From an uncultured virus (IMG/VR IMGVR_UViG_3300034374_006354) (Duplodnaviria > Heunggongvirae > Uroviricota > Caudoviricetes), in IMG/VR virus record IMGVR_UViG_3300034374_006354: a DNA stretch of 20,000 nt; one strand, 5' to 3'. The translations under genes and the position numbers were made by a program. Below, piece after piece: positions 3,004 to 17,818 of this stretch (positions within the stretch are counted from its first letter, which is position 1; each line of letters starts with the position of its first letter). Under the pieces are notes generated by a model that was not told where the DNA came from, ran no database searches, and saw only the letters and a list, made by a program, of their open reading frames with translations.

Positions 3004-6000
3004 TTATGGGCCAATTCCATACCAGTCTTCTCCTTCTAGGATCAATTCCAATATGTCTTCGGCTGTAATACCATCCTTGGGGTTTAAGAGACCCAACTCT
3101 TCTGCTTCCTTAAGAAGTCTTTCATAGGACTCTTTAGAAAGCCCTTGTTTCCTCATTTCCTTGAGGGTACGAAGGAGTGTTTGACCCTCTACCGCATCCG
3201 CATATATTCTACGTAATGCCCATTTAGCATCTGTAGAATCAACGATGTTAGTAAAGAATCCGTCATGAATAGTCGCTGTGTTCACGTTATTCGCTCTACC
3301 CCATAAGTGGAATTTGCGAACAATGGATGCGTCATTCATGTGGTTTCCATTTACTCCTAGACCGCTACGAGCATCAATAATCGATGACCTTCCTAAATAT
3401 TTAGAGTCGGTTATCGCTACCTCGTAGACATTACTCACCCTCCTTCCAGTTACAGGATCGATAAAAGAGATCCTTTCTTGAACTGTAGGACGGTATCGCT
3501 GATACAAGAGTTTACCGTCTACTGTAACCCAAGGTATGTCTACCTTTCCTGATTCAGTAATGTAAACCTCCGCAACTTTTTTCCAATATGAAATAAAGTT
3601 CTCCGTTACCGGAGCAACGTCTTTAAGGTGTTTTGACATAATACGGGCTACCTCTTTAAATTGTTGAGGGCCTACAATGCCACCTTTAACGTTGGTCAGC
3701 TTGGCTACAAAAAGCTCCGAATCAGGGTGAACGTCTCTAGCGTGTGCCAAGAGCTTTTTCCCGATTGGAACATTGTTAGTTATAGAGTAGTTTACTTCTG
3801 TTTTAAGTTCTCTTAGAGACGCCGCCACAGACGACGCATTAGATTTCTCCGCTGCTTTAATCGCATTATCAATGCCTTTATTAAAGTCTCTTAATTCATC
3901 AGCAGTTACTACTACAAAATTTTTCTTAGCAAGAACTTTAGCTAATTTAGCTTCAATAGCCCCTGCTTGTGTTGCTTGTCCAGCACCATAAAAAGCTACC
4001 ATCGATTGACCTTTAGCTGCCTTAGATAAATCACCAAAGTCTAAGTCGTTTCCTAATGGATTTATTTTATGGAAGTCTGGATCAGATAAGGTTCTTTCTG
4101 CTACAATATCATAAAGACGATTCTTTCTTTTTGTTTTTAGAATATTAGAAGCCTGAGCTAACTGCCTATCCCTTGTGCTTAGGGCAATTAACTGAGCTCC
4201 TGAAGCAGAAGCGTCATTTTCGTTTGCTAATTGTGTGAAATAACCTTTTAATTTTCTATTGTCAGTAAAATCACCATCTACATGCTTATAGATACGTGTA
4301 TATTCAAGAGCAAGTCGAGCTAGTTTTGGAACTTCTTCAGGTTCAGTTGCCCTAATAAGAGGATGCTCTAGGAACTCCCGGATCCTACGATCCCTTTGAG
4401 TTTCTGCTAACATCAACTCCCCTATCTCTCTGAGTGCCTTCTCATTTTCTCTAAAGGCTCTTAGTCTTCCCTCATTAGTCAGAGTATTGAAAGGATCTCC
4501 TACGAGTGTTCCTAATTGCAATCGAAGTTCATTAACAGTCTCAGGACGAATTTGTTTAGATACTTTGGTATTTAAGAAGGGTCGTATGAACTCCCCTCCT
4601 GCAGGGTGAAGATACCCTTGGGTATATAATCGTCCTCTACCGTCTATCTGCGCCCAATTCCTCCAAGATTGTTTATTAACGCGATGCCACCTTAAGGACT
4701 GCATCATGCCTGCGCCTGCTTCTCCTCTTTGAAGAACAATCTTTCGAAAACCGTTTAGCTCATCATAGTAGGCAACTCTTCCTCTGGGGTCTCTGAAATA
4801 CATAAGAGATTCAAAGAAAGAGGCAAAATCATCATCAACTTCCCATTCAAAATCCATGGCGTGATTAAGCATTCTAGAGAAATCCCTATCGATCAGGTTT
4901 TGATCATAATTACCAGAGGCTCTTCGTGTTATTACACTAAGCCCTGTTTTACGACCTCTAGAATCAAAGAACGTCTTTGATCCTGCCTTCACAGTAAGCA
5001 TATCCCTTTCTCTTATGATACCAATTCGTCTAGAGTATACTAACTCCTGATATGCCCTCTGCAGTTTGAGCATTTCAGGGTCAATAATCTGGACTTCCCG
5101 GGAGATGGTATCCGCATAAGAGCCTATTCCCGGCCTTCCGGATTCGACATCGATGATGCCTCTACGAGTAACACCTCTCATGCCAATTCTGATTTTGCCT
5201 TGGTCCTTAAGACCATCAAGAATATCTGATCCTACTTTATGATAATTTTTAACTGTTGGTGGTTTAAAGAATATATCGAAGTCGTTAGCCTCCGCTTCAT
5301 AAATCTTCTTACCAATCCTAATAGCTAACAAATCATAGTCTGTAGACTCGCCTGTTGCTATGTCTGCCATTATCTCAGATAATAGCTTAGTACGTTTCTT
5401 TAAGAAATCAGGAGTAAGCTCTCTTTGTATAAAGTCTTCTCTTTTCCTGGCATATATCCATTCAAGATCTAGAATCCTTCTTTTTCTCTCATTACCAGCT
5501 TGTAAAAAGCGAGTTATAAGATCATCTGAAGGTTCCCCATTATATCTCTTTAGAAAAGCCTTCCCAAAAGGTAAACTCTCAATTTCTTTCTTAATTTTCT
5601 TTCTAATAGATTTCTTAGTAGGAATGTAAGCAGGTACTCTTGGGAAATAAAGCCTAAGCGGTGATCTACCTTTAATATATAAATCTCTAGCTAAAGGTAA
5701 TCCATTTTTAACTGCCCACTCATCTACGTATCTCTGATTTGATAATGTCCTGTCCGACAAGTCATCAAAAGAAGTCCATTCTCCTAATATCTGAACTTGA
5801 GCATCTTCTTCTTTATTGCCAAAACGAAATATATTTCCTCGTAATCTAGATCTTCTATCTAGAATTCTAGAAGTGTTCACTACTGAGTTCTTGAGTTCTG
5901 CTTTAAGAACGCTAGAAAGATTTACCCACGGAGTCTTATCTTTTGCGTACCTTTCGAATACAATTCTAAGGTTTTCAGCAACAGCAGTTCTCTGATTGAC

Positions 6001-7455
6001 AGATAATCCTTCATCTTCCAATGAATCTACAAAACCTGTAATCCAAGCTTTCTGTTCTGTCGTTAGTAGTTTAGATCTATTTACAAAGTCTATTCTCTCT
6101 TGGTATACTTCAAAATCAGGACTATAAATCAGTGTTGATTTTTGTTCTCCGGTTAATGGATCAACTCCCACATTCCTTTCATCGAATTGATTATTTGCTC
6201 TCCGTCGAGTAGCACGTTTACCCGCAAGAGATGTACCTCTATAATCCACAACAGCCAAGGCGGAGGAATTATTGTGTGCCTCTGCCCTGTAAAAGACTTT
6301 AAGTTGGTTCTCAACGTCTTTATTACGAATCAAAGTCTGTGGTCTTGAAGCATCCACTCTCAAATTATTAATAGCGGTTGCACTTAAAGCTTTCTGCTTT
6401 ACTGGTGTGAAGTTTGTATTTTTATTATCCAGCCTTCGAAGTGCTTGTAATGAAATAGGTTTCCCACTTGCTGTAGTAAAACTTGTAAGCGGGAGTTGTC
6501 CAGAATCAAAAAGATCTACTTTCTGTATATCTCCTTGAAAATGGCGAACCTTAGTTTCTCTAGGTTGCCTTGTGAGCCATTGTCCATAGGTTTCCCTACT
6601 TGGCCCAATACCATCGAACTTTTTAATATTAGTTTGTTTAATAGCTTTAAGAGCTTTCTTTTTTACGTCAGGGGAAGTACTAGCTAAGAGCTCATCATAA
6701 GACTTAACAACAGGTACTAGTGTGCTACGACACCTCCAGTGTAAAGGAGGAACAAAGCGGAGGTCATCTAGGTCGTAGATTTCCCCATCGTGATGAGCAC
6801 AAATGGCTGATGTACGATTATCCAATACTGCGGTAAAGCGCATGCCCTTAAGAATTGCTCTATTCTCTTGGAATGAAGCTAATTGAGCTGTAGTTTGCGT
6901 CTTAGTTACGGCAGTTCTCACTAATGCGGATGCTTGGGCTTCGGTCAATCTTGTTGTTTTTATAACCGAGCGGACTAGCTGTTTGTTGTCCCACCCTTCC
7001 CGCAAGCCTTTTGTAATAGTGGCTTGAATGCGCTTAAGTTCGTTAGCGCCGAGACCTTGGATACGCCTGCTTAGTGTTCCTTCCCCTCTGACGTTAGCAC
7101 CTACGATTTCCTCAAGTACTTTAGTAGCAGCAGGTCTGCGGATTACCGCCCATTGACCTAAGCTTTTATTGAGGTTATTAGTGCTAAAATCGGTTTCTAC
7201 CAACCCAAAATCTTGCATTTGGGAGGTTACATTTACATCTAATTCTTTAGAGAATCGACTAACCTCCTGTTTGATTTCAGGCATGTGTTGTACCGCAGTA
7301 CCTTTCGTTAAGTCTTTCCCCTCTAATAATTTAGTCAAACGGGTTCTATGTTTACGTATAGTACGTTTCGTATCCGTTTGAACACGATCCTCGTACATAC
7401 GTGTCATAGCAGTATGATCAACTTGACGATCGTAAATATCATCATTGATTGACAT
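3004..7455 (-). CDS. MuF/SPP1-gp7 minor head protein fused to a T7-type single-subunit DNA-directed RNA polymerase
   Basis: N-terminus: AVLDNRTSAICAHHDG...PPLHWRCRSTLVP and TYGQWLTRQP (MuF/gp7). C-terminus: DGRGRLY (T7 DWRGRVY), motif A NDASASGAQLIALSTRD (T7 FDGSCSGIQHFSAMLRD), motif B KGQSMVAFYG (T7 KRSVMTLAYG), WVTVDGKLLYQRY (T7 WVTPDGFPVWQEY), NGNHMNDA (T7 NFVHSQDG), motif C IHDGFFT (T7 IHDSFGT). One uninterrupted ORF between portal and scaffold. Confidence 0.93.
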   Translation of the reverse strand: MSINDDIYDRQVDHTAMTRMYEDRVQTDTKRTIRKHRTRLTKLLEGKDLTKGTAVQHMPEIKQEVSRFSKELDVNVTSQMQDFGLVETDFSTNNLNKSLGQWAVIRRPAATKVLEEIVGANVRGEGTLSRRIQGLGANELKRIQATITKGLREGWDNKQLVRSVIKTTRLTEAQASALVRTAVTKTQTTAQLASFQENRAILKGMRFTAVLDNRTSAICAHHDGEIYDLDDLRFVPPLHWRCRSTLVPVVKSYDELLASTSPDVKKKALKAIKQTNIKKFDGIGPSRETYGQWLTRQPRETKVRHFQGDIQKVDLFDSGQLPLTSFTTASGKPISLQALRRLDNKNTNFTPVKQKALSATAINNLRVDASRPQTLIRNKDVENQLKVFYRAEAHNNSSALAVVDYRGTSLAGKRATRRRANNQFDERNVGVDPLTGEQKSTLIYSPDFEVYQERIDFVNRSKLLTTEQKAWITGFVDSLEDEGLSVNQRTAVAENLRIVFERYAKDKTPWVNLSSVLKAELKNSVVNTSRILDRRSRLRGNIFRFGNKEEDAQVQILGEWTSFDDLSDRTLSNQRYVDEWAVKNGLPLARDLYIKGRSPLRLYFPRVPAYIPTKKSIRKKIKKEIESLPFGKAFLKRYNGEPSDDLITRFLQAGNERKRRILDLEWIYARKREDFIQRELTPDFLKKRTKLLSEIMADIATGESTDYDLLAIRIGKKIYEAEANDFDIFFKPPTVKNYHKVGSDILDGLKDQGKIRIGMRGVTRRGIIDVESGRPGIGSYADTISREVQIIDPEMLKLQRAYQELVYSRRIGIIRERDMLTVKAGSKTFFDSRGRKTGLSVITRRASGNYDQNLIDRDFSRMLNHAMDFEWEVDDDFASFFESLMYFRDPRGRVAYYDELNGFRKIVLQRGEAGAGMMQSLRWHRVNKQSWRNWAQIDGRGRLYTQGYLHPAGGEFIRPFLNTKVSKQIRPETVNELRLQLGTLVGDPFNTLTNEGRLRAFRENEKALREIGELMLAETQRDRRIREFLEHPLIRATEPEEVPKLARLALEYTRIYKHVDGDFTDNRKLKGYFTQLANENDASASGAQLIALSTRDRQLAQASNILKTKRKNRLYDIVAERTLSDPDFHKINPLGNDLDFGDLSKAAKGQSMVAFYGAGQATQAGAIEAKLAKVLAKKNFVVVTADELRDFNKGIDNAIKAAEKSNASSVAASLRELKTEVNYSITNNVPIGKKLLAHARDVHPDSELFVAKLTNVKGGIVGPQQFKEVARIMSKHLKDVAPVTENFISYWKKVAEVYITESGKVDIPWVTVDGKLLYQRYRPTVQERISFIDPVTGRRVSNVYEVAITDSKYLGRSSIIDARSGLGVNGNHMNDASIVRKFHLWGRANNVNTATIHDGFFTNIVDSTDAKWALRRIYADAVEGQTLLRTLKEMRKQGLSKESYERLLKEAEELGLLNPKDGITAEDILELILEGEDWYGIGP

Positions 7456-7480: not shown

Positions 7481-7660
7481 TTAGAAGTCGGAATCTTTAA
7501 TAACTTTAGCTTCTTCCCTTGAGGAAACCAAAAGTCGTCCATCTTCCAACACTTCCAGGACTTTAAAGCCCTCGTTATTTGTATCGCCAACTTTTACTTT
7601 GGACTTTTTCTTATCAGCTTTGATACTCCATGAAGTATCTTTTTCTTCTTTATCCGCCAT
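7481..7660 (-). CDS. Small hypothetical protein (59 aa)
   Basis: Not in the ORF track. MADKEEKDTSWSIKADKKKSKVKVGDTNNEGFKVLEVLEDGRLLVSSREEAKVIKDSDF; overlaps the end of the upstream gene and fills the gap before the MuF-RNAP gene. Confidence 0.65.
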   Translation of the reverse strand: MADKEEKDTSWSIKADKKKSKVKVGDTNNEGFKVLEVLEDGRLLVSSREEAKVIKDSDF

Positions 7661-7925
7661 GATTAAATTTCCCTTCCATTAACAGGACAGCATCATCTTC
7701 TAGCATAGGCGTTTTTCCTAGAAACTTATTATTCTCTGGGGTAGGCTCTACAATCCATCGAATTTCAGTATCACCATGACTACCCGCAGGCACTTCTCGT
7801 TTCTCTACAATTTTCCACAAACCGTTTTTAGACAGCATGCCTACTTCCAGTTTAGGAACGGATTTAAGCTCAGGCTTTTCTTCTTCCTTCTTAGGACGGC
7901 CCGGGCCTTTCTTTTCTTCACTCAT
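7650..7925 (-). CDS. Small hypothetical protein with AT-hook-like KKGPGRPKK
   Basis: ATG 7925 overlaps the portal stop region (ATGAGTGA) and has a GAGG RBS; basic GRP motif at the N-terminus. Confidence 0.65.
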   Translation of the reverse strand: MSEEKKGPGRPKKEEEKPELKSVPKLEVGMLSKNGLWKIVEKREVPAGSHGDTEIRWIVEPTPENNKFLGKTPMLEDDAVLLMEGKFNHGG

Positions 7926-9546
7926 TATCATCTTCCTCAGAAATTGGTTCTGGTGTATTAGTTTGTTGGTTGACTATAGAGTCCATAGTCATAGTGTCTA
8001 ATCCACCCATAATTAAATCATCTTGGTTAATCTCATCTTGACCTTCTAGATCATCATAGTCAGAGTCGATAATATCGTTAGCTTTAGCCACTTCCAAGAA
8101 TACGGATCGTGGAATAATGCCGGTTTGATACCACTCTGTAACCAGACGCAACCAATCAGCACCTAAAGGCGCAGGGTTAAGATCAGGAGTCAAGTTAAAG
8201 GTAATCTCTTCGATATCGTAATCGGTGTCATATTTCCAGTTTAGCATCCACATAAGAATTCGTCTCATTTGAGTAGATACTTTAAAACTGATGGAAGCAA
8301 GCAATGCAGACTGACCCGCATTACGGATCTCCAAAGCTACACCAGAATCTCTACCGCTGCCATTCTCAGCAGCCATCATTCTAATACCCAATCTTGCCAT
8401 TTCATTGACAGAGTTTTGAATGATTTGTTCCATATCTCGAAGAGCTTTTGATGGTGTTTCGAGAGCCTTAACATCCTCTCCTGCACCAACCTTTAGCCAA
8501 GAGCCAAGGCCTCCATCCACAACCTCCTCAAACTGATCATCAGTCATGTCAGAGATTACAACAGGAGTATAAGTTGCTGAACCAAGCAATAAGTGGTTCC
8601 TTCGTGATACTTTGTTGTATAGCGCTACTTCCCTATCGATGAGCGGCATAAGAACCGGTTCATCTCCATCGATATTTCCGTTAAGAGGAACAGCAGGAAT
8701 AAAATTTAATCTTTTTCCATTGGCTAGGATATTGTCATTTATGCCAATAAGCTCCCAACCTGAACCTCCTCCACGATGGAAGTCATTTTGTTCTTGACCA
8801 TTGATAAACTGTACATCTACTGGCTTCTTTTTAATCTGGTATTTCTTAATTCTATAAAAACCCATTTCATCTAGTTCATGGACATGAACAGTCTCAATAT
8901 AATCCGGATGATAAGGATTCTCAGCAAAGCTTTCTTCATAGCTTCTGATTATCATAAATTTAAGAACATGTTTTCCAGTTATGGGGTGTTTACCCATCTT
9001 CCAGTTAATAACAGATTCGGCCTGAATAAGGATAGGATAAGGTCTAATCTTATCTCTGTCTTCTTTTTCTAGTGCCTCGATATTAGGAACCACAGGATGG
9101 TCCACCATTACCCAAGCTCTAGAGGTATGAAGCTCCTCTGTAAGAGCATCATTAAGGAATGATAATAGAGAATTACCATTCGCAGTAAATTCGTTTTTAA
9201 TCCAATCTAATGCACCTTCAGGTACACCGTCTGGTAAAATTACTTCAGGTTGTTTTCGAAGCATACCACCAATCAATACTTTAACATATTGAGAGGTAAG
9301 TCCAGGCAGTTCTGCTTCTGCTTTATAAAACTTATATTGAGATTCCGTCATAGACGGAGAGAAGGGCAATAAGATATTACTAAACCCTATTGCATCCAAG
9401 GTGTTATCCAGAGCCTTAGCGTGTGCTTGACCATTCAGGATGCCCCTAGATAACCTCCAAAGAGGCTTCAAGGACTCATACCTTGAATTAGGATCTCCAA
9501 CCGTTTTACTACGGTTATTGGAGGTACCTGTACTATTTGTAGACAT
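7918..9546 (-). CDS. Portal protein (DUF4055-like)
   Basis: 542 aa directly after TerL; Y..Y...AE...LT....L.G...RKQP N-terminus, ILIQAESVINW, FIPAVPLN, acidic tail. Confidence 0.88.
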   Translation of the reverse strand: MSTNSTGTSNNRSKTVGDPNSRYESLKPLWRLSRGILNGQAHAKALDNTLDAIGFSNILLPFSPSMTESQYKFYKAEAELPGLTSQYVKVLIGGMLRKQPEVILPDGVPEGALDWIKNEFTANGNSLLSFLNDALTEELHTSRAWVMVDHPVVPNIEALEKEDRDKIRPYPILIQAESVINWKMGKHPITGKHVLKFMIIRSYEESFAENPYHPDYIETVHVHELDEMGFYRIKKYQIKKKPVDVQFINGQEQNDFHRGGGSGWELIGINDNILANGKRLNFIPAVPLNGNIDGDEPVLMPLIDREVALYNKVSRRNHLLLGSATYTPVVISDMTDDQFEEVVDGGLGSWLKVGAGEDVKALETPSKALRDMEQIIQNSVNEMARLGIRMMAAENGSGRDSGVALEIRNAGQSALLASISFKVSTQMRRILMWMLNWKYDTDYDIEEITFNLTPDLNPAPLGADWLRLVTEWYQTGIIPRSVFLEVAKANDIIDSDYDDLEGQDEINQDDLIMGGLDTMTMDSIVNQQTNTPEPISEEDDNE

Positions 9547-9557
9547 CTAAGCCTCCG

Positions 9558-10898
9558 TTAAAATGTGTATGATTGTCTTGATCTTTTCTTAGTCCCTGCT
9601 GTTACAGGGAACAAGAATTCTGAAGCGTATCTTACACCGTCTGAATGGTGTTCTACGCCTTCTGATTTATCGATCATAGCAGAATCTGGATTATTTTCTT
9701 TCCAGACAGTTCTTTCCATTGATCTAATAGTATTCTTACATCTTGGATGAAATAGCATTCGTACCTCACCAGCTGCTGTTTTAAGCATCCTGTTTACTGA
9801 TGCAACAGAATCTACAATAGGTGGGTTCTTGTTTCTTGCCCTAGTCTCGAAGTTAAAGCTTTGCAGAATAGAGAAGTCAGTTCTTCCTACCGCTGCAGAA
9901 GACTTTCTGTTACGGCCTGTAGGGTCAGGATAACAAATAATCTTATGACCCTTATCTCCATATTGGGCTTTAAGCCTTTTACCTAAAGTTTCTGTATCGG
10001 GATGACCCATAAAGTCCTCTAAGAAGTGCATTTGACCTCCTCTCAATGCAAACAAAGAGGTGGCCATAATACCTACGTTGAAGTCAATACACGCATGAAC
10101 ATCTTCTCCCTCTTCAAAGTAGGGGATAGTATTCGTTACATGATCACGTCTATTAAAGTTATAGAACAGGTTGTTACCTGATTCATCAAAGGACGCTTCA
10201 TATTCCCTCTTAAACTGGAGGGGATCCATTGTGTGTAAATCCCGCTCAATTTCTTCTGGATCAAGGTAGGGACTATCTTTGTATGTAAAATGGTAACTTC
10301 CCCATCGATCGTCGACGGATTCGTTATTGTATAAGTCATAAAAATAATCTTTACCTTTGGGCGTACTAATAATGAGGGATCGTCCTGGTGAAGGAGCACC
10401 TAATGCTCTCGCCCGTTCTGGTGACCATCTAGTAGCTACACAAGGCCTAATCACGGATTCCCATGACTCCCTAAATGAACTACCTGCCCCACCCCAAGAG
10501 GTTACCTCATCGAGCACAACAAAATATTGACCTGAGCCCCTGAGTCGTTCGGACGCTTCATAAGACCATAGTTTCAATATAACGTTATTAGGGAACCAGA
10601 ATGTTCCTGAGTGCATACTACACTTATCTGCCCAATCTTCCATCCCAAATTGCCAAGCAATCATAGGAAAGTAAATATCTAAAGTTTGTTGGTAAGTAGG
10701 AGCAATGAGAGCCACATTCTTATTAGGAACATCTGCTGGCATATTAACTAAATCTTGTACTGCCAAACAAGCCGCTGCTCCTGCAAGATAACTCTTACCA
10801 AATCCCCGAGAAGCACAACAGACTGCATTCCTGATCCTCTTTTCTACAAAGAGATCATTAATGATCTGCGACTGGCCCGGGTGTAGAGTGATACTCAT
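9558..10898 (-). CDS. terL: Terminase large subunit
   Basis: Walker A ASRGFGKS, LIAPTYQQ, Walker B VVLDE, coupling motif ISTPKG, FKREYEASF, RNase H-like nuclease IDFN...HHSDGVRY. Confidence 0.95.
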   Translation of the reverse strand: MSITLHPGQSQIINDLFVEKRIRNAVCCASRGFGKSYLAGAAACLAVQDLVNMPADVPNKNVALIAPTYQQTLDIYFPMIAWQFGMEDWADKCSMHSGTFWFPNNVILKLWSYEASERLRGSGQYFVVLDEVTSWGGAGSSFRESWESVIRPCVATRWSPERARALGAPSPGRSLIISTPKGKDYFYDLYNNESVDDRWGSYHFTYKDSPYLDPEEIERDLHTMDPLQFKREYEASFDESGNNLFYNFNRRDHVTNTIPYFEEGEDVHACIDFNVGIMATSLFALRGGQMHFLEDFMGHPDTETLGKRLKAQYGDKGHKIICYPDPTGRNRKSSAAVGRTDFSILQSFNFETRARNKNPPIVDSVASVNRMLKTAAGEVRMLFHPRCKNTIRSMERTVWKENNPDSAMIDKSEGVEHHSDGVRYASEFLFPVTAGTKKRSRQSYTF

Positions 10899-11386
10899 TT
10901 CATAAATCTCCTAAAGAGTAACTTGATCCTTCCTTTGAAAGATCTAGTATTCTCAATATCTTCTTTTAATCCGTAATAACCAAGATTAGTATATTCTTCT
11001 GTTGTATACCACAACCATTTCTTTGGATCAAAGCGTTTTGGAATCTCATTAGTACACTTGAGATGCTTCGTAGCTATCTCATAACCAATATATTGTCCGG
11101 GGAAGAACGCTTTATGCTTTCCATCAGAAAAATTATAGCATGAATCCTTGTCATAGAATTCTGAAAGGAGTTCTGATTCCTTTTCCTGACATTCTTGCCG
11201 ACTGCCACGGAAGACAATTTCCCTCTTGAAATGCATCTTTGGATCAGAATAATCCCTCCAGAATTCCCAATTTCTACTAGAGCAGACATAGGAATCATCT
11301 TCGGATCCTTTATGATACCCAATGTATATCTTACCACTAGATTGGTTTGTAAGAATATATACAAAGGAAGTCTGCTTGTTGTCCAT
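10895..11386 (-). CDS. GIY-YIG (Seg-like) free-standing endonuclease
   Basis: VYILTN...GKIYIG motif, YxxSS, conserved E (KESELL) and YN; overlaps the terL start (ATGA). Confidence 0.75.
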   Translation of the reverse strand: MDNKQTSFVYILTNQSSGKIYIGYHKGSEDDSYVCSSRNWEFWRDYSDPKMHFKREIVFRGSRQECQEKESELLSEFYDKDSCYNFSDGKHKAFFPGQYIGYEIATKHLKCTNEIPKRFDPKKWLWYTTEEYTNLGYYGLKEDIENTRSFKGRIKLLFRRFMK

Positions 11387-12119: not shown

Positions 12120-12566
12120 CTACCTGTAGGTTTTCTCAACCCACTTTGCAAACAAAAGAAGTTCCTCTTCTCCCGCTTGGCTTTTCATGGCATTAGCCAA
12201 TCCAGATATGAATTGAATATTTCCACGAATATAACCCTTACTAGGATCAATCCTGTCTAATGTAGGACTTGATCTCCATCCTTCATTATCGGTGTAATTA
12301 CCTACCTTGAGTTTAATACCAAGGATAGGGCATTTAAAATCGTAAGGGAGAATATCTACAAGATCTTGCATAGTAATATCAGCGGGTACTCCCTTCTTTT
12401 CTGCTCGTCTGATACAGTCTTTCTTAGTAGAGTTAAGCCACCTGCATAATGTAGTGTCATTTACAAGATCTTTAAAATGGTTCTCGCAACCAATGCATAC
12501 TTTCCTTTTAGGATTGAAACGTTGGCATACGTTAGCGTCATTATGGCAGACATAGCAGCTAGTCAT
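12120..12566 (-). CDS. HNH/EndoVII-like endonuclease family protein
   Basis: CPILG...SPTLDRIDPSKGYIRGNIQFIS..ANAMK beta-beta-alpha-Me-like signature common in phages; N-terminal Cys cluster. Confidence 0.75.
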   Translation of the reverse strand: MTSCYVCHNDANVCQRFNPKRKVCIGCENHFKDLVNDTTLCRWLNSTKKDCIRRAEKKGVPADITMQDLVDILPYDFKCPILGIKLKVGNYTDNEGWRSSPTLDRIDPSKGYIRGNIQFISGLANAMKSQAGEEELLLFAKWVEKTYR

Positions 12567-13763: not shown

Positions 13764-13780
13764 CTATAGGGTGATCAATT
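13764..13780 (-). promoter_or_regulatory. Candidate phage-RNAP promoter AATTGATCACCCTATAG
   Basis: Repeated 17-bp motif with T7/SP6-like CTATAG end; points into the lysis/packaging/structural operon. Confidence 0.7.
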
Positions 13781-13801
13781 CATTCCCGGCAGTTTTTAGT
13801 T

Positions 13802-13818
13802 CTTTAATGTGATCAATT
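13802..13818 (-). promoter_or_regulatory. Candidate phage-RNAP promoter AATTGATCACATTAAAG
   Basis: Same motif with T3-like TAAAG end; identical to the copy at 14183-14199. Confidence 0.7.
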
Positions 13819-14152
13819 AGTTACTCCCATCAACAACCTGTTTAAGATAATCCATTGCTTCCTTACCTTTTAATCGCTTTTGTCGTTGTTTTCTGAGCCT
13901 TTCATTGTGACAATCTTTACAGATTTTGTTTCTTCCAAGGGGTTTACGCTTATTAAGCCCAAAGTTTGAAGCATCCTTCTCTGTGTGACAAGCAGAGCAC
14001 GTAATGGGATCACTTGTTGGTTCGTAGTTGAATTTCTTGGCATACTCCCTCTGACACTCTAAACACTTATAGGAATAACCTCTCTTCTTGGAGCTATCCA
14101 TAGGAAATCTATATTCCGGTTTCGTTTCTTTACAAGTAGAACATTTTAACAT
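13817..14152 (-). CDS. Zinc-finger protein with two CxxC..K....F......G....CxxC repeats (no nuclease domain)
   Basis: CSTC/CLEC and CSAC/CKDC pairs; GGAGG RBS; same repeat type as the N-terminus of the HNH at 16230. Confidence 0.7.
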   Translation of the reverse strand: MLKCSTCKETKPEYRFPMDSSKKRGYSYKCLECQREYAKKFNYEPTSDPITCSACHTEKDASNFGLNKRKPLGRNKICKDCHNERLRKQRQKRLKGKEAMDYLKQVVDGSN

Positions 14153-14182: not shown

Positions 14183-14199
14183 CTTTAATGTGATCAATT
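14183..14199 (-). promoter_or_regulatory. Candidate phage-RNAP promoter AATTGATCACATTAAAG
   Basis: Motif ends about 30 nt before the ATG of the first gene of the leftward operon, with a GGAGG RBS in between. Confidence 0.7.
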
Positions 14200-15565: not shown

Positions 15566-15652
15566 TGACCCTTAGTGGTTCCTTAACTTCGTGATGGGCG
15601 GAGCTAGTGGAATCATTAGGGGTCTTTTTACGGGGAGTCATATAGGGTTCTT

Positions 15653-15710
15653 TAGTGGTCTTTGGTGGGGGTATATGGTTCCCTAGTGGTCTTTGGTGGG
15701 GATATATGGT
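15653..15710. repeat. 27-bp direct repeat, period 31
   Basis: TAGTGGTCTTTGGTGGGG(G/A)TATATGGT at 15653-15679 and 15684-15710, 1 mismatch. Confidence 0.9.
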
Positions 15711-16172
15711 ATATGATGGGGTGTATTCGAACCCTGCTATATGTATGAAATCAAATTCATTCGATCCCCTAATGCAAACTTGGTCTCTCCCTACACAAGA
15801 TCAATATGCGAGAAAAAAGAATCAAAGAGGGACCATATGCCCCCACTATGCCTCCCACATACCTCACCACTCGGGAATCACCCGGCATCCACGGTGATAC
15901 CATGTAAGATTATGTAGGTTTCAAGAGTGCTCCTCTCTGCCCCTCTCTGGGACATTAAGAAAAGCTATACCTAGGCCATGGGTAGGCCATTAATTGTCCT
16001 TAGTGGTCATATATGGTTCACTGGTGGTCATTAGTGGTGAGGGTTTTAATTAGAGAGTGATTTAATGATTTATTAATGGTTATCCGTGGACTAACTGATA
16101 TTTCTCTTTATAAGCAAAGATTGAGTTTTTACACGCAATAATATGCATAGTTATTTATATTTGTTAAATAGA

Positions 16173-16200: not shown

Positions 16201-16214
16201 TGATCACTCTAAAG
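16198..16214 (+). promoter_or_regulatory. Candidate phage-RNAP promoter AATTGATCACTCTAAAG
   Basis: Repeated motif immediately upstream of the HNH gene. Confidence 0.7.
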
Positions 16215-16229
16215 AACGAACAATAATAA

Positions 16230-16922
16230 GTGATTGATATGTATAAAGTATGTAAGACTTGTGACTTAACTAAACAGGAAAAAAGCTTTCACAAAAATAT
16301 TAAAGGAAGAGACGGTTTACGTAGCTCCTGTAAGGATTGTGAAAGAGAAAAGCGAAAAAGCAAACTACAGTTAGTAGAGAGAAAATGTAATACTTGTAAG
16401 AGAATAAAACCCCTAACAGAGGAATACTTTATATCTTGTGATTCTCCTTCTCACTTTAACTTTACGAGAAAATGTTTAGAGTGTATTAAAACATGTAACA
16501 GTTGTGGAATTAAAAAAGAGTTAAAAGATTTTCCTAAAAATAACTTTCATAAATCAGGATATGCTAACCGTTGCAAATCTTGTCAATTAGAATATCTAGA
16601 TAAATATGGTGCAAAGAAATCTACAGCTAAAAAGAGTAAATATAGAAGAGAACGCAATTCTCTATTTATCTCTAGGGTTAAGATGAGATTAGGCTGTCAA
16701 TGTTGTGGATATAAAGAGCATCCTTCTGCTTTAGATTTCGATCATATAGACCCTTCTACTAAGAACTCTAATGATTACTCCGCTATGAATAGTAATTGGA
16801 GTAGGAAAAGGATAAAAGAAGAGATGAGGAAATGTAGAGTATTGTGTGCTAATTGTCATCGTATTCACTCTCATGGACATCACTACTCTAAATACCCCGG
16901 TTTAAATACACCTACCATTTAA
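16230..16922 (+). CDS. HNH endonuclease with N-terminal Zn-finger repeats
   Basis: Three CxxC...K....F...CxxC repeats, then CQCCG...LDFDHIDP..K...EEMRKCRVLCANCHRIH. Start may be GTG 16230 or ATG 16239. Confidence 0.85.
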   Translation: MIDMYKVCKTCDLTKQEKSFHKNIKGRDGLRSSCKDCEREKRKSKLQLVERKCNTCKRIKPLTEEYFISCDSPSHFNFTRKCLECIKTCNSCGIKKELKDFPKNNFHKSGYANRCKSCQLEYLDKYGAKKSTAKKSKYRRERNSLFISRVKMRLGCQCCGYKEHPSALDFDHIDPSTKNSNDYSAMNSNWSRKRIKEEMRKCRVLCANCHRIHSHGHHYSKYPGLNTPTI

Positions 16923-16968: not shown

Positions 16969-16985
16969 AATTGATCACTCTATAG
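16969..16985 (+). promoter_or_regulatory. Candidate phage-RNAP promoter AATTGATCACTCTATAG
   Basis: Repeated motif ending CTATAG-G as in T7; followed by AT-rich tandem repeats. Confidence 0.7.
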
Positions 16986-17006
16986 GACTAGTCCCCGGGG
17001 GAACCT

Positions 17007-17117
17007 ATTAATATATCATTAATATATCATTAATGATCATTAATATTCATTAATATATCATATATGATCCTTCATTATTCCTTCATATATCCCTTCATTA
17101 TTCCTTCATTATTCCTT
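17007..17117. repeat. AT-rich tandem ~11-mers: (ATATATCATTA)n then (CCTTCATTATT)n
   Basis: Read directly: about five imperfect ATATATCATTA-type units followed by about four CCTTCATTATT-type units. Confidence 0.85.
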
Positions 17118-17231
17118 TAAGAATCCCTGGATGATCCTATAGGACTCTGTTAGTTAGGTTATCATTAATATAACCCTAATAAAGAAACCCCTTAATTAAC
17201 AAACAAAACAACAAACAAAAGAGTAATTAGT

Positions 17232-17588: not shown

Positions 17589-17608
17589 AAAAAAAAGATA
17601 TATAAATG

Positions 17609-17670
17609 ACCCCCTATGACAATAGGTATAGACCCAATTAAGGGAATACCTAAGTCATAGGGGGTTTTTT
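17609..17670 (+). terminator. Intrinsic terminator between convergent gene blocks
   Basis: 12-bp stem ACCCCCTATGAC (17609-17620) / GTCATAGGGGGT (17654-17665), inner stem TAGGTAT/ATACCTA, T-run on +; the A-run near 17587-17596 suggests possible use on the - strand too. Confidence 0.75.
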
Positions 17671-17818
17671 ATTGATCTTCATCATAGGGATAGTCTATAG
17701 GAGTATCCTCTGATAATAGTAGATAAACTATCATAATACAGAGAACTATACCTGTTATGATTATAAATGCCATACCTAGTAAGGCTAGTATTGTTACTAT
17801 TGTTAATAGGGTATTCAT
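17669..17818 (-). CDS. Small membrane protein (49 aa)
   Basis: Not in the ORF track. MNTLLTIVTILALLGMAFIIITGIVLCIMIVYLLLSEDTPIDYPYDEDQ, GAGG RBS, ends at the terminator. Confidence 0.6.
   Translation of the reverse strand: MNTLLTIVTILALLGMAFIIITGIVLCIMIVYLLLSEDTPIDYPYDEDQ

Follow-up and report, generated by a model that had tools for sequence, protein, structure and literature searches.

Virion-borne RNA polymerases (RNAPs) are known from N4-like, jumbo and crAss-like phages and from Thermus phage P23-45, none of them a near-canonical T7-type enzyme and none carried on a MuF/gp7 protein. The N4 virion RNAP gp50 is described as being made late, packaged and injected into the next host, where it transcribes the early genes (PMC5512222) before a second phage RNAP of the T7 family, RNAPII (gp15/gp16), takes over (PMC5512222; PMC4496689). 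The account of P23-45 presents gp96 as a virion RNAP fused to the tape measure protein and gp64 as a non-virion RNAP; the former transcribes the pre-early genes, including that of the second RNAP, and two DNA motifs direct the two enzymes (PMC10770324). In its treatment of virion RNAP modules, a 2017 survey of polyvalent proteins confines them to N4-like phages; it also presents MuF/gp7 proteins as head components and MuF as being fused to many enzymes predicted to be delivered into the host (PMC5512222). In the MuF-effector fusions so described (polymorphic toxins, MuF-ADP-ribosyltransferase or MuF-ART, and MuF-RelA_SpoT) an N-terminal MuF is followed by a variable C-terminal enzyme, whose delivery along with the DNA is predicted (PMC5512222, PMC11806420). 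Here we analyze a stretch of 20,000 nucleotides (nt) from an uncultured member of the Caudoviricetes (IMG/VR record IMGVR_UViG_3300034374_006354), hereinafter the window, in which a single gene encodes a protein of 1483 amino acids (aa) that unites in one polypeptide a MuF head protein with a T7-type RNAP whose catalytic residues look intact. In the literature searched, no description of a MuF-RNAP fusion was found. An earlier note on this DNA had proposed the fusion as a candidate virion-delivered RNAP, but its list of known virion RNAPs left out the closest precedent, the tape measure-fused enzyme of P23-45 (PMC10770324).

The window protein resembles each of these systems in part. As in N4, two RNAPs are found in relatives of the window phage; however, N4 gp50 is a protein of about 3500 aa with its own flanking regions for injection and encapsidation, and is described as occurring in N4-like podophages only, in every case joined to a metallopeptidase domain (PMC5512222), whereas the much shorter fusion has no Pfam match to such a domain above cut-off and is carried by a MuF domain in a siphophage-type head module. 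With P23-45 it shares the fusion of a siphophage structural protein to an RNAP, but the P23-45 enzymes are two-barrel RNAPs related to the cellular RNAPs, with the tape measure protein as the carrier, while the enzyme considered here is a right-hand, T7-type polymerase on a portal-associated MuF protein. The whole-length fold, the catalytic motifs, the positions of two hairpins and the T7/T3-like promoter motifs of the window all recall T7 RNAP, which is nevertheless a free early protein of 883 aa, whereas the fusion has 560 extra N-terminal residues and is encoded in a late head operon. Finally, the order of an N-terminal MuF and a C-terminal enzyme is that of the MuF-effectors, among which the MuF-ART of Xanthomonas phage Xp12 structurally matches the N-terminal model; yet their cargo consists of toxins and host-modifying enzymes, often with immunity genes downstream, while the cargo here is the phage's own transcription enzyme, and the gene directly downstream is not an immunity gene but a scaffold gene (phrog_206) in 66 of 66 testable loci. 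By analogy, we consider it rather probable that the fusion works in the manner of gp50 with RNAPII in N4 and of gp96 with gp64 in P23-45. It belongs to neither family.

The gene is a single open reading frame (ORF), as first noted, but it is read on the minus strand, from 7455 to 3004 (Table 1); the plus strand of 3004-7455 is crowded with stops. In the checked translation all residues cited in the earlier note fall where it had placed them, namely LDNRTSAICAHHDG at 211-224 (L211-D212-NRTS-AIC219-AHHDG), PPLHWRCRS at 236-244 and TYGQWLTRQ at 289-297 in the MuF part, and D938-G-R-G-R942, D1081, K1148, Y1156-G1157 and H1397-D1398 in the polymerase part. The two Pfam families that it had named as a check both exceed their curated cut-offs, Phage_Mu_F (PF04233) at aa 142-246 with E 2.3e-15 (57.8 bits versus 29.6) and RNA_pol (PF00940) at aa 1069-1445 with E 3.6e-7 (29.8 bits versus 22), and no other Pfam family passes its cut-off in the protein. 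Among the PHROGs, phrog_241 (head morphogenesis) is matched by aa 1-363 (E 4.4e-52) and phrog_414 (RNA polymerase) by aa 936-1178 (E 2.5e-24). The proposed architecture, a MuF/gp7 protein with a T7-family RNAP in the head-morphogenesis slot, is backed by sequence, profile and fold, and on both sequence and fold the protein belongs to PF04233 and PF00940 alike.

An AlphaFold2 model of aa 381-1483, based on 36 family sequences, has a predicted local distance difference test score (pLDDT) of 87.1 and a predicted template modeling score (pTM) of 0.81. When searched against the PDB with Foldseek, T7 and mitochondrial RNAPs rank at the top, with E about 1e-20 (2.3e-20) over approximately 1000 aligned columns, and the VIA alignment with T7 RNAP elongation complexes (Z 30.4, root-mean-square deviation 3.5, 523 aligned) pairs model residues 187-1101 with T7 residues 35-882. 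Structure prediction, which the earlier note had also listed as a check, hence returns the full right-hand polymerase fold of T7 RNAP. Yeast and human mitochondrial RNAPs score Z 22-28 in VIA and the N4 mini-vRNAP (2po4) only Z 17.2; as modeled, the polymerase part is nearer to the T7 and mitochondrial enzymes than to that of N4. As T7 residues 35-882 are covered, the polymerase is predicted to start near aa 561 and to include the T7-type N-terminal domain; the motifs do follow in the order first reported, but the onset then placed at about aa 860 does not hold. Sequence identity to T7 RNAP in the structural alignments is 16-18%, and phmmer gives E 0.0011 for the window protein against T7 RNAP, while the family profile run against the PDB recovers T7 RNAP with E 2.7e-16 in four colinear stretches, which take in the DxRGR segment, motif A and the region from WVTxDG through motif C; it also matches N4 RNAPII (E 5.2e-5).

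Conservation was counted in a 34-sequence family alignment that reaches down to 22% identity, across which R942, D1081 and K1145 are invariant. Based on the catalytic residues, which are invariant or at least 90% kept in these 34 members, we propose that the polymerase part is likely to be active. K1148 and Y1156, which may correspond to T7 K631 and Y639, lie in a conserved K1148-x7-Y1156-G segment that resembles the KRNVMTLGYGG of the free RNAP of relatives, but hhalign set the two segments apart. A beta-hairpin at aa 1324-1347, which comes after the WVT-DG segment aligned to T7 residues 724 onward, would by its position be the specificity loop, and a long beta-hairpin at aa 755-790, whose position is interpolated from the range of the structural alignment, would be the intercalating hairpin.

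In the MuF region, T181, T184, N198, L211, D212, T215, C219, P236 and P237, as well as H239, C242, R243, S244, P248, W293 and Q297, are invariant in the same alignment. The AlphaFold2 model of aa 1-560 (pLDDT 85.8) has 102 matches in BFVD at E<=0.001, which are predicted viral head morphogenesis or minor capsid proteins and include a protein of phage Halfdan (TM 0.70) and the MuF-ART fusion of Xp12; at the same threshold it retrieves zero solved structures from the PDB. A short linker of low pLDDT leads from the MuF region to a helical middle module (Table 1). This module is shared in part by two Pelagibacter phages, Kolga and Aegir, whose MuF proteins are of the longer kind (tblastn match to aa 1-489). 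Of these, gp59 of the siphophage Kolga (L092), a head morphogenesis protein of 633 aa, matches aa 1-489 of the window protein, which indicates that part of the middle module occurs without the polymerase.

The fusion is real, old and widespread. Contigs from two other runs, X6 (1913 nt, spanning 5110-7022) and X7 (721 nt, spanning 5703-6423), cross the MuF-linker-RNAP junction with zero differences, and contigs from metatranscriptome libraries cover portions of both halves, although DNA carry-over is possible there. One 486-nt contig each in X6 and X7 touches 4826-4852 and 7310-7328 and then continues in unlike sequence; most likely it comes from a different organism and matches by chance or through a repeat. 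An assembly chimera is ruled out by the independent metagenome contigs that bridge the junction together with isolate genomes that carry the fusion. The cultured roseophages DSS3_VP1 and DSS3_PM1 (Naomviridae) encode a fusion 44.5% identical over 100% of the protein, annotated as 'head morphogenesis' (gp108) in the former and as 'minor head protein-like protein' in the latter, and in EBPR siphovirus 1 the fusion gene is split (gp47/gp49) around an HNH endonuclease gene. Of the checks named at the outset, continuity across the junction, seen here in contigs, and a homologue search both speak for the fusion, which is conserved together with its synteny; the annotated homologues that the earlier note could not exclude do exist in these three phages, and none of them is annotated as a polymerase.

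With aa 860-1483 as the query, a word-indexed search yielded 216 protein clusters at E<=0.001 (8000 candidates scored); among the matches listed, 114 of 120 contain PF04233, and the six that do not are shorter (817-1257 aa), lie on contigs of 6-11 kb and are probably truncated gene calls. The exact window protein is also recorded on a contig of 66,043 nt. When aa 381-1483 were run against 1.84 billion representatives in a full scan, just 130 proteins were obtained at E<=0.001, with canonical RNAPs only at the bottom of the list (e.g. P0244, E 7.3e-5). The long representatives at 50% identity all match PF04233 at E<=0.001 (23/23, with 21 over the cut-off), and 17 of the 23 match PF00940 at the same threshold, 15 of them over the cut-off. 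One of these representatives, P0157 (1301 aa), retains MuF and aligns with aa 700-1060 of the window protein, and its C-terminal part has matches to a nucleotidyltransferase (PF01909) and a GNAT acetyltransferase in place of RNA_pol.

Homing-endonuclease introns typically sit at conserved, functional sites. In three relatives the polymerase-coding part of the fusion gene is split by a group I intron (Rfam RF00028, 86-103 bits; Table 1), roughly where motif B lies and close to the equivalent of aa 1150 in the window protein. The HNH gene of EBPR siphovirus 1 is in a comparable place, with no intron there reaching the threshold. It might still be argued that the polymerase half is a decayed, inactive remnant or a chimeric join, given the modest Pfam RNA_pol score of 29.8 bits. 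We regard this as extremely unlikely in light of the bridging contigs, the isolate genomes with the fusion, the invariant or nearly invariant catalytic residues in 34 sequences, the full-length fold with its Z of 30.4 and the pairs of group I intron and homing endonuclease near motif B in three relatives.

We then examined the genomic context. On the minus strand of the window, the order of genes is PhoH, a homing-endonuclease-like ORF, TerL, portal, a 93-aa ORF, the fusion, scaffold, major head protein and head-tail adaptor; the fusion gene is a member of the late module. Across 75 IMG/VR loci, 45 of them with a full-length gene, a portal gene is found no more than 1.5 kb upstream of the fusion in 36 of 37 testable cases (the sole exception, L031, has a 3.3-kb insert) and the scaffold gene within 600 nt downstream in every testable case (66/66).

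The wider transcription program was read from relatives, namely DSS3_VP1 and the IMG/VR records G002-G005, among which are three records rated 100% complete, and also G011. In all five of DSS3_VP1 and G002-G005, PF00940 matches two genes, weakly in the fusion and strongly (E about 1e-82) in a canonical RNAP that is free and approximately 735 aa long; G011 likewise encodes both RNAPs, with a fusion 35-48% identical to the window protein. The free RNAP of DSS3_VP1 is gp080, annotated as 'RNA polymerase', whose gene is preceded by a series of small genes and followed by those for DNA metabolism. The fused and free enzymes are distant from each other: BLASTP gives E 0.54, and hhalign aligns them over 625 columns with a probability of 98.3%, E 1.8e-14 and 15% identity, values which rule out that the fused RNAP is a recent duplicate of the free one. 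PF04233 occurs once per record in the same five genomes and always in the fusion, which is therefore the sole MuF protein of the related phages examined.

These relatives also carry two classes of promoter-like elements. G004 has all 86 of its chosen ORFs on one strand, and its T7/T3-like motif CCAGGGGACGCTAAAGAGAGA occurs at 7544, 28514 (variant), 51876, 52498 and 69419, sites that lie directly after the free RNAP gene, before the packaging/head module, between head and tail genes and among the tail genes. The T7-like motif is absent from 23.4-26.3 kb of G004, where small genes precede the free RNAP gene; that region instead contains two exact copies, at 23815 and 24021, of a 37-nt element that includes ATCTATAATGA. 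A 107-bp terminal repeat of G004 lies inside the run of tail genes and was treated as a circular-assembly overlap, not as evidence on the physical genome ends. DSS3_VP1 shows GGGTGCGTTAAAG-type motifs at 19.2, 45.9-46.6 and 59.2 kb, and GCATCTATAATGA at 35809 and 36256, the start of its small-gene run, and at 67793. In nine further loci (among L094-L111) ATCTATAATGA is found 2.2-2.6 kb upstream of the free RNAP gene. This early element is conserved, stands in tandem at the start of the small-gene region and is distinct from the T7-like class.

Based on the parallels with N4 and P23-45, we favor, as a probable course of events, a relay in which a virion-packaged polymerase would start early transcription and then be replaced by the free enzyme; we infer that the fusion is packaged, ejected and active as a polymerase, and also which enzyme reads which class of promoter. 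The fusion protein would be made late, alongside the portal, scaffold and capsid proteins, and its MuF part would set a few copies at the portal inside the procapsid. In the next infection it would exit the capsid together with the DNA, and the polymerase part would transcribe the first genes without the host RNAP and might help to draw the DNA in. These early genes would include, as in the related complete genomes, that of the free T7-like polymerase, which in turn would read the T7-like promoters of the middle and late genes, the fusion gene included, closing the cycle. Loading by way of MuF fits with four features of the relatives: the fusion is the sole MuF gene in 5/5 genomes, it is a late-module gene, a second, free RNAP is present, and there is a distinct early promoter-like element. 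More broadly, we judge it an evenly balanced proposition that this is a third, independent way to carry a transcription enzyme in a phage particle, in which a near-canonical T7/mitochondrial-type RNAP would be loaded via the portal-associated MuF in aquatic siphophages of a large group with a worldwide distribution (Naomviridae and kin), and in which the virion enzyme would read the ATCTATAATGA early element and switch on the free RNAP for the late genes including the fusion, granting independence from the host RNAP from the first second of infection.

Several observations weigh against such a relay. No second RNAP was found in the window, nor in G006-G010, five incomplete contigs of its closer clade that are 44-68% complete, and for the window phage the relay would be an extrapolation from relatives at 35-50% identity. 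The ATCTATAATGA element has a single 1-mismatch match in the window, which is at chance level, and was not found in G006-G010 either. In the relatives, this early element contains a perfect TATAAT, so that the host RNAP could read it, as in T7, and a virion polymerase would then be unnecessary. A protein of 168 kDa would have to pass the siphovirus tail. The main text of the DSS3_VP1 paper mentions none of RNA polymerase, MuF, minor head or sodium dodecyl sulfate polyacrylamide gel electrophoresis (SDS-PAGE). Lastly, the fused enzyme itself is an equally plausible reader of the T7-like motifs in the window. When 18 ORFs from 12.1-19.9 kb of the window were compared with all loci by tblastn, no contig was found to join the right side of the window to a free RNAP gene, and the nearest record, G001, a 7-kb fragment, has no PF00940 match. 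A later paper on the deoxyuridine (dU) pathway of DSS3_VP1 mentions, outside its supplements, neither RNA polymerase nor virion.

The motif in question, GATCACNNTAWAG, has five exact copies in the window against 0.95 expected, a number reached by none of 200 shuffles, and each copy lies between genes and points in the direction of the genes that follow it. A scan for sigma-70 promoters found 56 sites in the window (52.4 +/- 7.3 expected), with no enrichment. In 10 loci of the window's wider clade (e.g. L005, 9834-9848) the fusion gene is preceded, at a distance of about 165 nt, by a T7-like TTGATCACNNTAWAG that falls within a small ORF or next to one, which would suit late expression; at the corresponding place the window lacks this copy. 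Shorter CCTATAGGA variants are seen in the window at about 13700, 13740, 14335, 17140 and 17695. The enrichment of the exact motif would also suit a polymerase that acts late and solely in the producing cell, reading late T7-like promoters or serving at the portal in packaging, with MuF in its ordinary morphogenetic role and any packaged copies idle in the next infection. Such a role would further agree with the model hairpins at the positions of the T7 promoter-recognition elements and with the fact that a second RNAP gene is seen neither in the window nor in the five incomplete contigs of its clade. We nevertheless hold it to be unlikely: the complete genomes possess a canonical free RNAP, directly after whose gene the T7-like motifs start, the classic arrangement of a free enzyme; if a polymerase first appears along with the capsid proteins, little remains for it to transcribe in that cycle; and a purely intracellular role hardly explains why a diffusible enzyme should be tethered to a module that binds the portal.

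If the polymerase is packaged, early transcription need not be its main task. T7 RNAP pulls in most of the T7 genome, and the fused enzyme, bound near the leading DNA end, might act as a motor or pilot for genome entry by transcription, with gene expression secondary, an alternative already put forward in the earlier note. The architecture and the packaging arguments would be the same as for the polymerase relay, but no sequence evidence sets this role apart from early-gene transcription and transcription is not known to be needed for the entry of siphophage genomes, which makes it, in our view, a decidedly unlikely primary function. T7 and mitochondrial RNAPs also make primers at their origins, and a delivered enzyme could conceivably synthesize the first replication primers on the incoming genome; its fold is as close to the mitochondrial RNAPs (Z 22-28) as to T7 RNAP, and the window has iteron-like repeat clusters at 15.6-16.05 kb and 17.0-17.13 kb. 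However, the relatives encode a primase/helicase (DSS3_VP1 gp062) and the repeats have no link to the fusion protein, leaving this a very improbable explanation.

The relay from a packaged to a free polymerase, if true, would mean that delivery by MuF, so far known for toxins and host modifiers, extends to core machinery of the phage, and that a widespread group of aquatic phages has a two-polymerase program hidden by annotation, with 'head morphogenesis' as its label in cultured members. In the cultured relatives dU is reported to replace thymidine in the DNA (PMC8323127), and other dU phages such as AR9 are described as also carrying virion RNAPs. By this analogy, a virion RNAP may be a general requirement of dU genomes, and the relay may explain the first transcription of such DNA. 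As DSS3_VP1, DSS3_PM1 and their host are in culture, the proposal is directly testable, and the compact, divergent T7-type polymerases with their new promoter motifs are possible tools.

Table 1. Features of the fusion protein and its surroundings (nucleotide positions refer to the window unless a locus is given; AF2, AlphaFold2)
Feature	Position	Strand	Basis or remark
MuF-RNAP fusion ORF	3004..7455	minus	1483 aa + stop; start ATG at 7455, stop 3004-3006
MuF / SPP1-gp7-like minor head region, aa 1-350	6406..7455	minus	phrog_241; AF2 model
Pfam Phage_Mu_F core, aa 142-246	6718..7032	minus	Pfam; alignment
Linker, MuF region to middle module, aa 351-358	6382..6405	minus	AF2 model; pLDDT<50
Helical middle module, aa 371-545	5821..6345	minus	AF2 model; matches no known fold in PDB search
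T7/mitochondrial-type single-subunit RNA polymerase, complete, aa 561-1483	3007..5775	minus	AF2, VIA, Foldseek, profile
Long beta-hairpin, aa 755-790, at about the T7 intercalating hairpin position	5086..5193	minus	model strands 375-385, 401-410
D938-G-R-G-R942 = T7 RNAP D421-W-R-G-R425	4630..4644	minus	alignment; R942 invariant
D1081, motif A catalytic aspartate = T7 D537, 'DGSCSGIQ' segment	4213..4215	minus	invariant 34/34
Motif B-like K1148...Y1156-G1157	3985..4014	minus	kept in at least 90% of 34 sequences
Beta-hairpin, aa 1324-1347, at the T7 specificity loop position	3415..3486	minus	model strands 944-952, 959-967
H1397-D1398, motif C = T7 H811-D812, 'IHDSF'	3262..3267	minus	D1398 in at least 90% of 34 sequences
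Portal protein gene, upstream of fusion (93-aa ORF between)	7918..9546	minus	phrog_145, E 1.7e-56
Scaffold gene, downstream of fusion	2260-2955	minus	phrog_206
Major head protein gene, after scaffold	1041-2228	minus	phrog_247
T7/T3/SP6-like promoter motif (A)ATTGATCACNNTA(A/T)AG(A/G)A	13764-13776, 13802-13814, 14183-14195	minus	
T7/T3/SP6-like promoter motif (A)ATTGATCACNNTA(A/T)AG(A/G)A	16202-16214, 16973-16985	plus	
T7/T3-like promoter motifs GATCACCCTATAG and GATCACATTAAAG	13764..13814	minus	ahead of the long operon that includes the fusion gene
Group I intron in fusion gene of relative L127	L127 1205-1559	minus	followed by HNH homing-endonuclease ORF
Group I intron in fusion gene of relative L045	L045 4999-5251	plus	followed by HNH homing-endonuclease ORF
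Group I intron in fusion gene of relative L052	L052 13396-13662	plus	followed by HNH homing-endonuclease ORF

Elsewhere in the window, four ORFs resembling homing endonucleases or HNH/endonuclease VII-like proteins occur within 6 kb, at 10895-11386(-), 12120-12566(-), 13817-14152(-) and 16230-16922(+), one of which sits between PhoH and TerL. Between convergent genes, at 17595-17679, there is a 26-nt inverted repeat with arms that are 85% complementary and 33 nt apart; with its G/C-rich cores and T runs it resembles a two-way terminator. The iteron-like clusters, at 15620-16040 and 17000-17135, are dense arrays of short direct repeats in gene-poor stretches, with the units TAGTGGTCTTTGGTGGGG-TATATGGT, ATTAATATATCATTAAT and TCCTTCATTAT, and may be an origin or regulatory region.

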